Origin: Candidatus Saccharimonadales bacterium
Lineage (GTDB): Bacteria; Patescibacteriota; Saccharimonadia; Saccharimonadales; EFPC-124
Assembly: GCA_050730875.1 (NCBI GenBank)
Contig: JBOHNX010000001.1
Coordinates: 361,972-425,971, forward strand
DNA length: 64,000 bases
Reading direction: 5' to 3'
Position 1 is the first letter of the stretch, and each line of letters starts with the position of its first letter. The translations under genes were made by a program, and so were the position numbers. The notes beneath the pieces were generated by a model, which was not told the DNA's origin, did not search any database, and saw nothing but the letters and a program-made list of their open reading frames with translations. Shown here piece after piece: positions 2,901-63,177 of this stretch.

Positions 2901-2930
2901 AAAACAACCCCGCAAACGCGAGGTTGTTTT
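2901..2930 (-). terminator. Rho-independent terminator after rpoC
   Basis: AAAACAACC(2901-2909)/GGTTGTTTT(2922-2930) stem with an inner CGC/GCG extension. On the minus strand it is followed by TTTTATTTTAATTTT, 16 nt after the rpoC stop. Confidence 0.7.
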
Positions 2931-2945
2931 AGAAGTACCTGCAGA

Positions 2946-5900
2946 CTACTCTTCTTCTGGCAATTCCTGCAGTTCGCGGGCACCGGTACCGACTGGGATC
3001 TTGCGGCCGATGATCACGTTTTCCTTCAAACCATAGAGGTTGTCGACGCGACCACTGGTGGCTGCATTGATCAGCACGCGGGTAGTGTCTTGGAATGACG
3101 CTGCCGAGAGGAAGCTGTCGCTCCAGATAGACACCTTGGTGATACCAAGCAGCAGCTGCGTAAACTGAGTTGGCGCCTTGCCTTCAGCTACAAGCTGTTT
3201 GTTGGTTTCGACCACTGCGGCTTTCGATACGATGTCGCCAGTTACGAACAAGCTGTCGCCGGGGTCTTCAATCTGTACACGGCTGAACATCTGACGCACG
3301 ATGATCTCAAGGTGCTTGTCGGCAATGTTCTGGCCCTGTGCAGCGTAGATGCGCAACACTTCGTTAATCATGTAGCGCTGAGTAGCTTCTACACCCTTCA
3401 GGCGCATGAGGTCGTGCAGGTTGAGTGAACCGTTGGTTAGGCGGTCACCTGCTTCAACCTTGGCACCATCGATAACAGTTAGCTGCTTGAAGCCTGGGAT
3501 TTCGTAGCGAACCGGCGTTTGGTTGCTGCTGTTGAGCACAATGTGCTCTTTGGTTACTTCAACCACGCCGTCGAATGGTGCTGTTACTGGGCGGTCTTCG
3601 TTCTTATCTGAAGCGAGGACGTCGCCAACCAGCACTTGCGTACCACTCTTCACGCGAGCCTTGCGGCCATCGAGTTCGAGTTTTTCGGTGCGACCCTTCT
3701 CAGGAGTAACTTGCACGACATATTGGTCGCCGTCTTCCCAAACTTGGGCAGTACCGGCAATCTCGGTCATGTAAGCTTGACCCTTTGGAGTGCGAGCTTC
3801 GAACAACTCATCGACACGAGGCAGACCCTGGGTGATGTCTTCACCAGCCACACCACCGGCGTGGAAGGTACGAAGCGTCAACTGGGTGCCAGGTTCACCG
3901 ACTGACTGAGCAGCGATAACACCAACCGGTTGGTAGGCGTTAATGAGCTCGTTGGTTGCCATGTCGATACCGTAGCTCTTTTGCGAAATACCGCGGAGCG
4001 ATTGGCAACTGAGCACACTCATAATCTTCACTTCGGTAATCTTCTCGTCTGCTTCGATTGCGTCAGAAATTTCGCGGGTCAGCAGCTCGCCCTTCTTAAC
4101 GTGACCCTTCACGTCTTCGGCTGCGTAGCGGCCAAACAAGCGGTCGCCAAAGGCGATCATGGTTTCTTCAGACTCAGCGCGGTAAATTGCGAAGCCTGGG
4201 TCCTCAGTTTCATCTTCGATAGTGAAGATATCCTGGCTCACGTCTACCAGACGTCGGGTTAGGTAACCTGAGTCGGCGGTCTTGAGCGCGGTGTCAATCA
4301 AACCTTTACGTGCACCACGGGTGGCGACGAAGGCTTCCAGCGGGCTCAGACCCTTCTTGTAGCTAGAGCGGATCGGCAGCTCGATTTCTTTACCGGTCGC
4401 GTCAACCATCACACCAATCATGGCGGTGGCAAGCTTGACGTTCGAGATGTCACCACGAGCACCAGAGTCAACCATCACAGCAACCGAGGTATCTTCTTTT
4501 GCGAGACGTTTTTGCAGTACTTCGAGCACCTTCTTGTCGATTGCACGCCAGGTAGCCACGGTCAGGCTGTAGCGCTCGTCGTCGGTAATTAAACCTTGTT
4601 CGTACTGGTCAGAGATCTTCGCAGCACGCTCTTCACCTTCGCCGATGATGGCATCGAGCCCATCAACGTTGAAGTAGTCGGTCATACCGGTCGAAACGGC
4701 ACCCAAGGTTGCGAATTCGAGCGCGAGATCTTTTACTTCGTCGGCAATGTGGGCAGCGGTTTCTGAACCGTAGCGTTCGAAGACTTTCGCCAGCACCTTA
4801 CCAAGCTTCTTCTTGCCCATAACGTCTTCGACGTACTTGAAGTCTTCAGGTAGAATTTCGTTAAAGTACACGCGGCCCAAAGTGGTTTCGCGAGTCTCAC
4901 CCTTTACAGGAACAATGATTGGGGTTTGCAGTTTGATTACGTCGTGCTCGTAGGCGTAAATTGCTTCGTTGACGTTTGCAAAGCGACGTGGCTTCGCAAC
5001 CTGAGCGCTTGGCTTTGGATAGGTCAGGTAGTAACAACCGAGTACGATGTCCTGGCTGATGTTAAGAATTGGCGAACCATCAGCAGGTTTAAGTAGGTTG
5101 TTGGTTGCGCTCATTAGCTCGCGGGCTTCGCGCTGTGCGTCTTCGCTAAGCGGAAGGTGCACGGCCATCTGGTCACCATCGAAGTCGGCGTTGAAACCTT
5201 TACAGACCAATGGGTGCAGCTGGATAGCTTTACCTTCGATCAGCTTAGGCTGGAAGGCCTGAATCGACAGACGGTGCAGCGATGGAGCACGGTTAAGGAG
5301 TACGTATTTCTCCTTAATGACTTCGTCAAGCGCGTCCCAAACTACGCTGTCACTAGCCTCAATAAGGCGAGTTGCGCTTTTAATGTTGTGGGCGTGTTCG
5401 CGAACAAGCAGTTCTGCGATAACAAATGGCTTAAAGAGTTCAAGTGCCATAAGTTTTGGCAGACCACACTGGTTAATCTTGAGCTCTGGACCAGCCACAA
5501 TAACTGAACGGCCTGAGTAGTCAACACGCTTACCAAGCAGGTTCTGGCGGAAGCGACCTTGTTTACCCTTGAGCATATCGCTAAGGCTCTTCAAACGGCG
5601 GCGGCCACCAGTTGCGCTGACAGCGCGGCCACTCCGTGCAGCCGAATTGTCGATGAGCGCATCAACAGCTTCCTGAAGCATGCGTTGCTCGTTACGGCGG
5701 ATAACTTCCGGCGCGTTGAGGTCAATCAGCTTCTTCAAGCGGTTGTTACGGTTGATCACGCGACGATAGAGATCGTTGAGGTCGCTGGTTGCAAAACGGC
5801 CACCTGTTAGCTGTACCATCGGACGAAGATCCGGTGGGATAACTGGCAGAACAGTCAAGCACATGCTGGTTGGCTTAATGCCAGCGCGCAGCATACCCTC

Positions 5901-16125: not shown

Positions 16126-16241
16126 TCATATTGTCCTCACTCGTAGTTCGCTAGCGCTCACCTCGTTCGATCTAAGGAAAACATAAACAGCCACTGGCTG
16201 TTTATGACCTACGGTTCAAGTCCCCATTTCAAGCGAGCAAA

Positions 16242-16273
16242 GTAAAACGACGGTCAGAAGACCGTCGTTTTAC
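16242..16273 (-). terminator. Terminator immediately 3' of tRNA-Leu
   Basis: GTAAAACGACGGTC-AGAA-GACCGTCGTTTTAC gives a 14-bp stem. On the minus strand it is followed by TTTTACTTTG. Confidence 0.7.
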
Positions 16274-16275
16274 TT

Positions 16276-16360
16276 TGGTGCGCGAGAGAGGACTTGAACC
16301 TCCACGTCCGAAGACACTAGTTCCTAAGACTAGCGCGTCTACCAATTCCGCCACTCGCGC
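16276..16360 (-). tRNA. tRNA-Leu (anticodon UAG), CCA encoded
   Basis: Hand fold: acceptor GCGCGAG/CTCGCGC, D arm GCG..CGC, anticodon stem CTAGT/ACTAG with loop CTTAGGA (anticodon TAG), long variable arm TGTCTTCGGACGT, T arm GGAGG-TTCAAGT-CCTCT, discriminator A plus CCA. Confidence 0.93.
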
Positions 16361-16520: not shown

Positions 16521-16546
16521 AAAAGACCGGCTGTAATTAGCCGGCC
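16521..16546 (-). terminator. Possible terminator overlapping the rsmD stop codon
   Basis: CCGGCT (16527-16532) pairs with AGCCGG (16539-16544), loop GTAATT. On the minus strand it is followed by TCTTTTAG. Confidence 0.45.
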
Positions 16547-17076
16547 TTGTGGTAGAACGCCAGCGCCGCGTTTCCGTAATTTCGATTGTCCACCACAACA
16601 ACTCCATTAACGGTCGGCGCCGAGCCTCTACCTGGGTATGATAGTACCATAAGCCCGTTGTTTTTTAAATGACGTGATAACAACGAAACTGTGGATAACT
16701 GCAGGTCGTGATATGGAGGGTCCACGAGTATCAGATTAAACTTTGCATCAGGATTTCGCTCGCTCCACATGCGCGAATTTGCTTTTATTAATTTGACTTT
16801 TTCTTGCACCCCGAGTTCGCTAATATTTTGGGCGATAATTTTTTGCGCGCGCTTTTCGCGCTCTAGCAACGTGGCGTGCACGGCACCGCGGCTGACTGCT
16901 TCGAAGCCTAGTGCACCGCTGCCGGAGAAAGGGTCGAGCACAGTTTGGCCCTCAATATCACCCAAAATATTAAAGAGCGAACCGCGCAGGCGTTCGCTCA
17001 TTGGATGAGTGGCGGCGCTATCGGGAGATTCAAAAAAACGGCCACCTAATTCACCTGCAATAACCCTCAACCTCAT
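16537..17076 (-). CDS. rsmD: 16S rRNA (guanine966-N2)-methyltransferase
   Basis: 179 aa with an SAM-binding LDPFSGSGALGFEA motif and a DPPY catalytic motif. ATGA overlap with the upstream gene. Confidence 0.9.
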   Translation of the reverse strand: MRLRVIAGELGGRFFESPDSAATHPMSERLRGSLFNILGDIEGQTVLDPFSGSGALGFEAVSRGAVHATLLEREKRAQKIIAQNISELGVQEKVKLIKANSRMWSERNPDAKFNLILVDPPYHDLQLSTVSLLSRHLKNNGLMVLSYPGRGSAPTVNGVVVVDNRNYGNAALAFYHKAG

Positions 17077-61373: not shown

Positions 61374-61555
61374 ATTGGTTATGATTATAGTTACCTAACT
61401 TCCAGATGGGAATATTGACATAAGCATATACTGATTGCATTACTACACAGTGGCATCTACCAATGCGCCCAAAAGGTCAAAAGCGAAATATCTATTTGTC
61501 GCAAAACAAGCATTATGCTTTGGTGGTATCGTGGGGTCTTTGTGGAAGGGAGAAC

Positions 61556-61864
61556 ATGATGTCGCTCAAGCCCACCACTTCGAAAGTAAAGCAAAAGGGC
61601 GTCATAACATTGCAAGCCAGGCTACACGAGCATTGCACCGCCACCCGTGAAGATGTCTGGCGGGCGCTGACCCGAATTCGCCACTCCTGGATACAGGCCA
61701 TCGTCGAATACACGCGGTCAGACGGAAACTACGAGCACTGTATCCGTTACCCCAAGGGCTTCGAGCTCTTGATGGTCATTCCGCCCGGCTCCACCTGCAC
61801 TCAGAATCAATTCGATTTCCATTTGCAGGAGTTCCGCATGGAAATCGCAAAGTGTTTTGAGTGA
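61556..61864 (+). CDS. Hypothetical orphan protein (102 aa from ATG 61556)
   Basis: This is the only plus-strand ORF in the cluster. GGAAGGGAG lies 3-4 nt upstream of ATGATG. There is no family match. Competing short ORFs occupy the same gap, so coding status is uncertain. Confidence 0.35.
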   Translation: MMSLKPTTSKVKQKGVITLQARLHEHCTATREDVWRALTRIRHSWIQAIVEYTRSDGNYEHCIRYPKGFELLMVIPPGSTCTQNQFDFHLQEFRMEIAKCFE

Positions 61865-61868
61865 CTGC

Positions 61869-61906
61869 GCTGGCGCCGGGGAGTTACGATGCTCCCTGGC
61901 GCCAGC
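61869..61906. terminator. GC-rich hairpin between the convergent orphan ORF and rpe (no clear U-tract)
   Basis: GCTGGCGCCGGGGAG (61869-61883) pairs with CTCCC-T-GGCGCCAGC (61892-61906). Confidence 0.4.
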
Positions 61907-61909
61907 CGC

Positions 61910-62566
61910 CTACACTTCGATATTCAATTTATCTAGCAATTCAGTAAGGCGTTTATACGCTTCAGCTGGATCTTCGGCGCGTTGAATGTAACCGCCGACA
62001 TTAAGTACCTCTACACCGCCTAGTGCAAGCTGGGCAGCGTTCTCACCACTCACGCCACCATCCCAGCCTATTTCGACGTTGGCATTAATTGAGCGGATTG
62101 GGCCAATTTTGCGTAGCATTTCCATGTCGGCCTGGCCGCCAAAGTGGCCAAGATCACCGCTAAAAATAAGCACGTGGTCAACCTCACCAATAATATCGCG
62201 AAAGTCGTTTGGGTTAGATTCTTTGAGCAAGGCCACGCCGCATTTGATATTGACCGCGCGCAACTGGCGCATCATGCCTAGTAAGTCACCCTCGGCTTCG
62301 GCGTGCACAATAACCAAGTGGGGCTGCAAGCTTATGATTGTCTCGGTATGTTCGGCCGGTTTTTTAAGCATAAGATGCAGGTCGGCCAAAATTTCTTCTG
62401 GCCAGTAGACTTGCACAGGGTTAACGGTGCGAACTGGCGCAAATTCGCCATCCGCCAGATCAATTTGTACTCGCTTAGCAAACGGCGCAATGCGAGCCAT
62501 TTGCTCGCGATAGGCGTGCGGGTTTTCGGCTAGAACAGTCGGGCAGATGATTGCGCTAGAGCTCAT
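61910..62566 (-). CDS. rpe: Ribulose-phosphate 3-epimerase family protein
   Basis: IDLADGEF, HLM, VHAEA and IGWDGGV correspond to the RPE barrel motifs (VDVMDGHF, HLMV, FHxEA, xDGG). AAGGAGG lies 7 nt upstream of the ATG. Confidence 0.85.
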   Translation of the reverse strand: MSSSAIICPTVLAENPHAYREQMARIAPFAKRVQIDLADGEFAPVRTVNPVQVYWPEEILADLHLMLKKPAEHTETIISLQPHLVIVHAEAEGDLLGMMRQLRAVNIKCGVALLKESNPNDFRDIIGEVDHVLIFSGDLGHFGGQADMEMLRKIGPIRSINANVEIGWDGGVSGENAAQLALGGVEVLNVGGYIQRAEDPAEAYKRLTELLDKLNIEV

Positions 62567-62721
62567 ATGTCAACCTCCTTTCGGACCGAAACCACCAGAT
62601 TGCCGAGCGAAAACTGCGAAACGGGAGGAAGCATAGCCGTAGCTACGCTGACGAGTGGTTCGCAGTTTGCAGCCGGCAAGGTGGGGGTTGGAGGTGGAAG
62701 GAGTGTTGACATATGAGCTCT
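62558..62721 (-). promoter_or_regulatory. Long imperfect hairpin sequestering the rpe SD and start codon (candidate translational-coupling or riboregulatory element)
   Basis: A 17-bp perfect helix 62558-62574/62705-62721 plus a 6-bp helix 62575-62580/62698-62703 (one bulged T). Inner helices: 62592-62596/62680-62684, 62600-62605/62674-62679 and 62611-62620/62659-62668. Confidence 0.6.
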
Positions 62722-63170
62722 CAGCCGTAGAGTTCCTCGATTTCGTGAATACGGCGGGTGTGGCGGGCTGCTTTTGAAAACGGCGTGCGTAGCCAGGTTT
62801 CGATGACGTTAAAGGCTTCTTCCTCGCTCAGCGCGCGGGCTGGAACACATAGCACGTTGCTGTCGTTGTCGTTACGAGTTTCTTTTGCGCTGGTCTCATC
62901 CCAACAAAGCGAAGCGCGAATACCGCGAACGCGATTGGCAGCAATGCACATACCTTGCCCGCTGCCACAAAGCAGCAATGCGCGCGGGTCAGGATCTTCG
63001 CTGCCCAGCACTTTGGTTACAGCTGCGTAGGCAAACTGCGGATAATCGTCCTCTGGGTCGAGGACTTTATTGCCAACATCTTCGACATCATAGCCGTTCT
63101 TACTCAAGTAAGCCATGACTTTCTCTTTTAGATGGAACCCTGCGTGGTCTGAAGCAATAAAAACCTTCAT
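62721..63170 (-). CDS. rpiB: Ribose-5-phosphate isomerase B
   Basis: MKVFIASDHAGFHLKE...LLCGSGQGMCIAANR signature. ATG 63170 is preferred over the track's GTG 63176. Confidence 0.92.
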   Translation of the reverse strand: MKVFIASDHAGFHLKEKVMAYLSKNGYDVEDVGNKVLDPEDDYPQFAYAAVTKVLGSEDPDPRALLLCGSGQGMCIAANRVRGIRASLCWDETSAKETRNDNDSNVLCVPARALSEEEAFNVIETWLRTPFSKAARHTRRIHEIEELYG

Positions 63171-63177
63171 ACTCACC

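Follow-up and report, generated by a model that had tools for sequence, protein, structure and literature searches.

In the 64,000-nt stretch of Candidatus Saccharimonadales bacterium DNA analyzed here (assembly GCA_050730875.1, contig JBOHNX010000001.1, positions 361,972 to 425,971; herein the window), the genes for ribose-5-phosphate isomerase B (rpiB) and a ribulose-phosphate 3-epimerase family protein (rpe) are separated by an imperfect palindrome that folds into a single long rod in the mRNA and buries the translation start of rpe. Comparison with relatives makes a 164-bp palindromic DNA insertion specific to this lineage, at the overlap between the rpiB stop and rpe start codons, the best explanation of the element. 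The fuller account, to which we give somewhat better than an even chance, is that a palindromic insertion in this xTGA overlap donated a Shine-Dalgarno (SD) site plus an ATG to rpe, and that translation of rpe depends on ribosomes coming off rpiB, most likely through a relay across a short open reading frame (ORF) within the hairpin. The feature is thus best explained as a combination of known kinds: a hairpin insertion resembling a MITE (miniature inverted-repeat transposable element) and structure-enforced translational coupling. The element and its flanking genes are laid out as follows.

62558 to 62721, minus strand: the imperfect palindrome, a putative insertion of 164 nt that forms a 61-bp rod in the mRNA (identified by folding, absence from relatives and an excision test)
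62705 to 62721, minus strand: proximal terminal inverted repeat (5' in the mRNA), AGAGCUCAUAUGUCAAC, pairing with the rpe AUG and codons 2 and 3
62558 to 62574, minus strand: distal terminal inverted repeat, GUUGACAUAUGAGCUCU, holding the rpe start codon (62566-62564) and codons 2 and 3
62574 to 62580, minus strand: rpe SD, AAGGAGG, with the ATG 7 nt downstream; its AAGGAG pairs with CUCCUU at 62698-62703
62698 to 62703, minus strand: anti-SD, CUCCUU, in the 5' arm, 18-23 nt past the rpiB stop
62722 to 62724, minus strand: CTG at the ancestral rpe start position (the xTG of the xTGA overlap with the rpiB stop)
62721 to 63176, minus strand: rpiB (Pfam LacAB_rpiB, 1.6e-46), with its TGA stop at 62723-62721
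61910 to 62566, minus strand: rpe family gene (Pfam Ribul_P_3_epim, 9.3e-22)

A first-pass annotation, made from the sequence without database searches, had described a hairpin in this spacer, and its coordinates, sequences and basal helix were all verified. AGAGCTCATATGTCAAC (62558-62574) is the exact reverse complement of 62705-62721, which gives a perfect 17-bp terminal inverted repeat; T62704 is bulged, and CTCCTT (62575-62580) then pairs with AAGGAG (62698-62703). One repeat scan of the window failed to list the 17-bp repeat, and three other methods confirm it. Also as described, the 3' arm consists of the rpe SD, spacer, ATG and two codons, and the 5' arm opens with the final base of the rpiB TGA; this A of the UGA (62721) is the first base of the proximal repeat. 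Alignment of the two arms shows a perfect match over the basal 23 bp versus ~70% identity in the interior; under uniform decay, a run of 23 matches would arise with a chance of ~0.7^23, or ~3e-4 by our own estimate. Such perfect ends on an imperfect interior look, to judge from the alignment, like terminal inverted repeats attached to a body that was imperfect from the start; constraint on the ends or their homogenization are the alternatives. The element is 55% GC, compared with 50% for the window, and is not AT-rich.

The minus-strand RNA from 62740 to 62540 folds into a single rod with a minimum free energy (MFE) of -93.2 kcal/mol. The comparison with shuffled controls that the first-pass annotation had proposed bears the hairpin out: 200 dinucleotide shuffles average -54.0 ± 4.4 kcal/mol (z = -8.97), and none is as stable. 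The interior alone (62581-62697) reaches z = -6.5, and the region is the most stable among 1419 sliding 180-nt windows of the 64 kb (-91 vs. a mean of -49 kcal/mol; standard deviation 8.8). The inner helices proposed earlier are only partly retained: TTGCCG/CGGCAA and AAACTGCGAA/TTCGCAGTTT are in the MFE structure, but CCACC/GGTGG and the apex palindrome CGTAGCTACG, although true complementarities, are shifted there to a neighboring register. The rod is unbranched, with no junction and no pocket. Within it, the SD core and AUG of rpe have a computed probability of being unpaired below 0.004 (MFE -93 to -100 kcal/mol).

An mRNA structure kept by selection would be expected to contain G-U pairs on the sense strand, and its complement would not be expected to fold better. 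Here, 60 of the 61 pairs are Watson-Crick and one is G-U; the antisense transcript is more stable than the sense (-106.1 kcal/mol, z = -9.8, vs. -93.2 kcal/mol), and single-stranded DNA likewise folds into the rod. The Watson-Crick pairing and the stabler antisense strand therefore point to a DNA palindrome, that is, an inverted repeat at the level of DNA, rather than a structure selected on the sense RNA. An inverted-duplication or MITE-like origin, which the first-pass annotation had placed last among its explanations, emerges as the best-supported origin, in the form of an insertion into an ancestral overlap.

This overlap is seen in the relatives. The loci compared comprise 62 from GTDB species representatives and the contigs of the four closest homologs; after the genome's own protein, the next best Rpe match among 5.8 billion proteins has 72% identity, a distance that provides no basis for dating the insertion. 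In most relatives rpiB and rpe are adjacent, with spacings of -8 to +18 nt and TAATG, ATGA or GTGA junctions. In the closest, whose Rpe identity reaches 72%, the two genes overlap by ATGA or GTGA, and three of them (P0002, P0006 and P0008) all share a 4-nt ATGA overlap (e.g., ...TACGGATGAGCATGATCTGCCCC). Sequence resembling the 164-nt element is absent from the loci of all ~70 Saccharimonadales relatives. The 62 GTDB loci and six loci of the closest protein-database relatives contain no homologous spacer for alignment; the ~115-nt interior, earlier called conserved-looking, has no homologous sequence in any relative. A few lineages (L027, L029, L030, L034 and L035, at ~2930-3000) carry rpiB-rpe spacers of 40-67 nt with TATAAT or TATACT boxes, which fold weakly and place no hairpin over the ribosome-binding site (RBS), and other lineages have an extra gene between rpiB and rpe. 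Remodeling of the junction has occurred independently several times, in the 40-67-nt lineages apparently by promoter acquisition.

Precise deletion of 62558-62721 leaves TACGGCTG joined to AGCGCAATCATCTGCCCG; for read-level comparison, the empty-site junction is given as ...TACGGCTG joined to AGCGCAATC.... After deletion, rpiB reads ...TAC GGC TGA (Y G stop) and rpe reads xTG AGC GCA ATC ATC TGC CCG (x-S-A-I-I-C-P), a -4 xTGA overlap with the same architecture and N-terminal length as in relatives (MSTVVCP, MSSIVCP, MSIICP). The sole difference is that x = C, the old start position being now CTG. The present Rpe N terminus, MSSSAIICP, is 2-3 residues longer than that of any of 24 aligned relatives, and the extra codons, ATG AGC TCT, are 9 nt that lie inside the distal inverted repeat. 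The insertion is placed at the stop/start overlap because relatives lack the element and because its deletion restores both the -4 xTGA overlap and a relative-like Rpe N terminus.

The present start of rpe appears to have come with the element. The module AAGGAG-N7/8-ATG-AGC-TCT, facing outward, is present in both inverted repeats, and the SD and ATG are therefore intrinsic to the ends of the element, not an RBS that evolved in place. At the proximal end the module points into rpiB antisense: the plus strand at 62698-62703 reads AAGGAG, forming a second outward SD-N8-ATG module without a gene to serve. The SD of rpe is unusually strong for the genome, AAGGAGG occurring at only two of the 38 gene starts examined in the window, rpe included, and an SD core of at least 4 nt at only 11. 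Many start codons of the window lie 0-12 nt after TATAAT-like hexamers (e.g., 13934, 40414 and 61373), which suggests widespread leaderless mRNAs in this Saccharimonadales genome. Also at the proximal end, the plus strand contains at 62706-62733 a sigma-70-like match (TTGACA-16-TAGAGT, 10/12) that faces outward, antisense to the rpiB 3' end, with its -35 hexamer inside the inverted repeat; it is the sole sigma-70-like match and is within chance expectation for the region (one found vs. 1.5 expected).

In an alignment of 25 sequences (the window and 24 relatives), Rpe has lost none of the invariant residues, and the gene is therefore presumably still expressed. Between rpiB and rpe, the minus strand has no predicted site resembling a promoter or a terminator. 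Because the SD and AUG are buried, rpe is presumably expressed and no promoter-like site is predicted between the genes, something must open the rod; since the RBS is buried and rpe is likely expressed, dependence of rpe on ribosomes off rpiB is the most economical reading. A candidate for the opening step is an ORF that runs through the hairpin.

62563 to 62712, minus strand: ORF49, a hypothetical relay ORF of 49 codons that crosses the entire hairpin, starting with an ATG 8 nt past the rpiB TGA

ORF49 shares its frame with the old start position (CTG, 62724-62722) and ends in a TGA that overlaps the rpe ATG as ATGA. We propose that the insertion landed exactly in the 4-nt xTGA overlap joining rpiB and rpe and that the distal module, in frame with rpe, replaced its start, exchanging the old Met for Met-Ser-Ser. 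The two arms of the element would pair in the rpiB-rpe transcript as the 61-bp rod that buries the new SD and AUG; a free 30S subunit would be unable to initiate at the buried site, and rpe translation would depend on ribosomes off rpiB. A ribosome terminating at the rpiB UGA would re-initiate 8 nt downstream, at AUG 62712, and translation of ORF49 would unzip the whole hairpin before stopping at the UGA that overlaps the rpe AUG (AUGA) and re-initiating there. Alternatively, as a last step, the ribosome may hold the 3' arm single-stranded until a new 30S can bind the strong SD. When the element first inserted, while the old ATG or GTG was intact, the relay would have consisted of two xTGA overlaps in succession. 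The net effect would be that the ancestral obligate coupling of rpe to rpiB survives a 164-nt insertion. Coupling is best at spacings of -4 to +3 nt and usually weaker out to ~+40 nt (PMC12548453); re-initiation at +8 nt falls within this range, in which -4 overlaps are optimal.

Several observations weigh against this account. The ORF49 frame is open in 0.3-0.5 of dinucleotide shuffles and its register is a further chance of ~1 in 3, both unremarkable; ORF49 lacks a good SD, its AUG lies inside the basal helix, and the old rpe start position is now CTG. Exact-product look-ups of this ORF and of the other 49-aa ORF returned no gene call on record. The genome is SD-poor and partly leaderless in appearance, and the coupling rules of Escherichia coli may not transfer to it. 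Only a single sequence of the element is known. On the side of mobility, the only target-site duplication candidate is an ambiguous 2-nt AG, common to the start of the element and its right flank, or in a different register TGAG. Searches, which covered 64 kb of a metagenome-assembled genome (MAG) that extends ~490 kb or more further, turned up no second copy, and mobility is a conclusion from anatomy. Neither 49-aa ORF has word-sharing protein candidates; phmmer against 1.8 billion representatives returned P0121 and P0122, which were rejected as spurious, both being long tandem-repeat proteins whose scores add up one weak match (~25 bits) across 7-11 repeats.

The first-pass annotation had favored a simpler device, an evolved coupling hairpin that needs no intervening translation: the ribosome that stops at the rpiB UGA would itself melt the anti-SD arm and thereby expose the rpe RBS. 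The 5' arm does begin with the stop codon's last base, the RBS is wholly sequestered, and the helix brings the stop and start codons next to each other. A terminating ribosome, modeled as +9 to +12 nt held open, frees the AUG (probability unpaired 0.66-0.69), but the SD stays paired (0.03); the SD value rises to ~0.10 with +15 to +18 nt open and to only 0.22 with 24 nt forced open. The CUCCUU lies 18-23 nt past the stop, and direct melting of the anti-SD fails unless translation continues into the element. A linear spacing of 154 nt also far exceeds the usually efficient range of re-initiation (PMC12548453), and the lack of conservation, the almost wholly Watson-Crick pairing (60/61) and the stabler antisense strand argue against an RNA shaped by selection. 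We regard direct melting as doubtful, a little more so than a role for nuclease cleavage, which is itself unlikely. In the latter case RNase III, or another double-stranded RNA nuclease, would cut the 23-bp basal helix, uncoupling the rpiB and rpe mRNAs and destroying or unmasking the rpe RBS. RNase III needs roughly two helical turns of double-stranded RNA, and the basal helix, with 17 perfect bp and 6 bp beyond a single bulge (~20 bp or more of near-continuous duplex), is a plausible substrate. Cleavage at the inverted repeats of a MITE is documented for Correia elements in Neisseria (PMC10969869; PMC2649163). The cut would, however, fall between the SD and codon 3, more likely inactivating rpe than activating it, and cleavage is in any case compatible with the coupling model.

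A neutral or mildly deleterious insertion, selfish or junk, would require no relay: rpe would be translated at a low but sufficient level while transcription-coupled ribosomes and helicases prevent the hairpin from forming. The element is indeed an orphan, single-copy palindrome of DNA type, and a second unexplained insertion in the operon (536 nt, between rpe and tktN) suggests relaxed operon compactness in the lineage. Once the hairpin has folded, however, computed RBS accessibility is essentially zero, and the perfect basal 23 bp against an interior of ~70% identity (the ~3e-4 chance given above) imply ends that are young or constrained. This explanation is improbable, though it is the rival that we would discount least. 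The suggestion that the additional ~115 nt of structure forms a ligand- or temperature-responsive riboregulator of a pentose-phosphate enzyme has in its favor only that extra structure and a position upstream of a metabolic gene. As the first-pass annotation had supposed, no described RNA family matches: an Rfam search at permissive and gathering thresholds gave nothing relevant, with no family at E ≤ 10 beyond one spurious long noncoding RNA match of 17.8 bits. The unbranched rod offers no junction or pocket, no relative has a homolog, the antisense is stabler than the sense, and at -93 kcal/mol the structure is far too stable to melt within physiological temperatures. A riboswitch or thermosensor was rejected on stability, topology and lack of conservation, and is the least credible of the explanations. 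An assembly artifact (a palindromic mis-join or chimera) is scarcely more probable. Logan contigs of the same run (SRR27067773) do break inside the apex, their ends flanking 46 nt (L063 1-67 corresponds to window 62558-62624 and L064 2162-2212 to window 62671-62721); poor coverage of the hairpin, micro-heterogeneity or a repeat may be the cause. In these contigs, built by an independent assembler, the two arms nevertheless have the identical sequence and adjoin the correct flanking genes; the apex, found only in the MAG, contributes AAACTGCGAA, which exactly complements a helix half in L063. The arms are imperfect copies, whereas artifactual fold-backs are perfect, and fragmentation is general in the Logan assembly of this genome, with L064 only 2.2 kb long. 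The artifact was rejected because both arms occur in the independent assembly and are imperfect copies. A palindromic insertion with a donated start and ribosome-dependent rpe translation thus remains the account we prefer; nothing indicates that the element was selected as a regulator, and it is not a conserved regulatory RNA.

MITEs are shorter than 500 bp, encode no transposase and have terminal inverted repeats of ~4-30 bp; some families have as few as one copy per genome (PMC10969869). At 164 bp, with ORFs of only 49 aa that lack homologs, the element is small and nonautonomous; its inverted repeats measure 17 bp perfect, or 23 bp with one bulge, and an empty site is represented by relatives without the element and by the ancestral xTGA junction that excision restores. 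Multiple related copies, a further MITE feature, were not seen in what was searched. No second copy was found in the 64-kb window (with up to three mismatches, or by BLAST) or in the 73 fetched loci covered by the sequence-similarity searches, and viral contigs and plasmid and phage collections gave no match. A scan of JGI metagenome contigs with a two-inverted-repeat pattern gave only three hits, all unrelated AT-rich chance repeats. Nothing resembling the inverted repeat, as would be expected of a cognate insertion sequence (IS), occurs elsewhere in the window. We therefore call the element MITE-like in anatomy, as read from its sequence, and claim no membership.

Among bacterial MITEs, the closest parallels are the Correia elements (CREE) of Neisseria, ERIC of enterobacteria and the ~150-bp Rickettsia palindromic elements. 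Like these, the element is small and transposase-free, gives a stable stem-loop in the transcript, has terminal inverted repeats (17 bp, perfect) on an imperfectly palindromic body, and lies at a gene junction inside an operon with outward expression signals in its inverted repeats; as in the Rickettsia elements, an ORF runs through it (PMC10969869; PMC2649163). It differs from all three in having no second copy found, no clear target-site duplication and no known cognate IS, in not being AT-rich and in showing no sequence similarity to a known family. Its outward signal also differs, being an SD and ATG that serve as the start of a gene rather than a promoter. To our knowledge, such an outward start is undescribed for a MITE. 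In IS10 and IS50, "fold-back inhibition" arises when the terminal inverted repeat in read-through transcripts pairs with and occludes a start in the element end; there, occlusion protects the internal transposase gene, whereas in the present case a host gene lying beyond the element has its start occluded.

For the coupling itself, both RNA-unfolding and re-initiation models are established, and in E. coli rpmI-rplT, phage MS2 coat-lysis/replicase and phage f1 VII-IX the downstream RBS is paired with an upstream segment that ribosomes open (PMC12548453). In the predicted fold, the rpe RBS is likewise silenced by pairing with an upstream segment, and the sequestered downstream RBS on which RNA unfolding depends is thus found computationally. 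In the known cases, however, the complementary strand is part of the upstream ORF or can be reached by its terminating ribosome, and the structures are conserved; here it is wholly past the stop, with the anti-SD out of reach, and the hairpin is an orphan insertion. In our model, upstream ribosomes would fully open the complementary strand only if ORF49 is translated. In plasmids R1 (tap-repA) and ColIb-P9 (repY-repZ), a structure that hides the RBS opens only when a short ORF, with a stop overlapping or abutting the next start, is translated, and the iraD leader is reportedly coupled to a short upstream ORF, as a paper title states. These leader ORFs start their transcripts and are regulated by antisense RNA or CsrA, whereas ORF49 would be fed by re-initiation from an enzyme gene.

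On the minus strand, the gene order is gap (63178-), rpiB, rpe, split transketolase genes, a class-II aldolase and a PfkB kinase. The same operon holds a second anomaly, 536 nt without a called gene between rpe and tktN (61374-61909), where the spacing in the closest relatives (L070-L073) is 0-1 nt. The stretch opens with a 14-bp GC-rich hairpin (61869-61906) directly after the rpe stop, contains a plus-strand ORF of 133 aa (61463-61864) with no Pfam match, ends in a TATAAT box before tktN and has no homolog in any fetched locus. Elsewhere in the window, a perfect 18-bp hairpin with a 4-nt loop (16238-16277; CAAAGTAAAACGACGGTC....GACCGTCGTTTTACTTTG) adjoins the only tRNA gene (16279-16360) and marks the second most stable region, and a 17-nt inverted repeat (16821-16837/16956-16972; 94% complementary) with arms 118 nt apart lies inside an ORF at 16537-17076. 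In another Saccharibacteria MAG (L008, 1330-1445), a rod with a ~29-bp perfect stem (-98 kcal/mol, z = -7.5) stands upstream of gap and is followed by a U-rich tract; it is terminator-like and bears no sequence relation to the element. Other stable 180-nt windows in the relatives' loci are mostly GC-rich coding or terminator-like hairpins, also unrelated in sequence.

If the proposed mechanism is false, what is left is an orphan palindromic insertion of limited general interest. If it is true, the locus is a natural experiment on coupling, in which a -4 overlap has been split by a 164-nt hairpin with the downstream enzyme gene intact, and it offers a compact construct for pitting unfolding against re-initiation models. 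A further lesson would be that a host gene can obtain a complete translation start, SD and ATG, from an inserted element, and the locus would show how a gene-dense, reduced genome such as that of Saccharibacteria can tolerate a palindromic insertion inside an operon. A more speculative step, which we consider improbable on present evidence, is that the element represents an undescribed class of "operon-compatible" palindromic mobile elements, with an outward SD and ATG in each inverted repeat and a body open both ways whose stop overlaps the outward ATG. Were such a class to exist, insertion into a stop/start overlap would turn one-step coupling into a two-step ribosome relay rather than cause polarity, and elements of this kind could colonize the almost spacer-free genomes of candidate phyla radiation bacteria.

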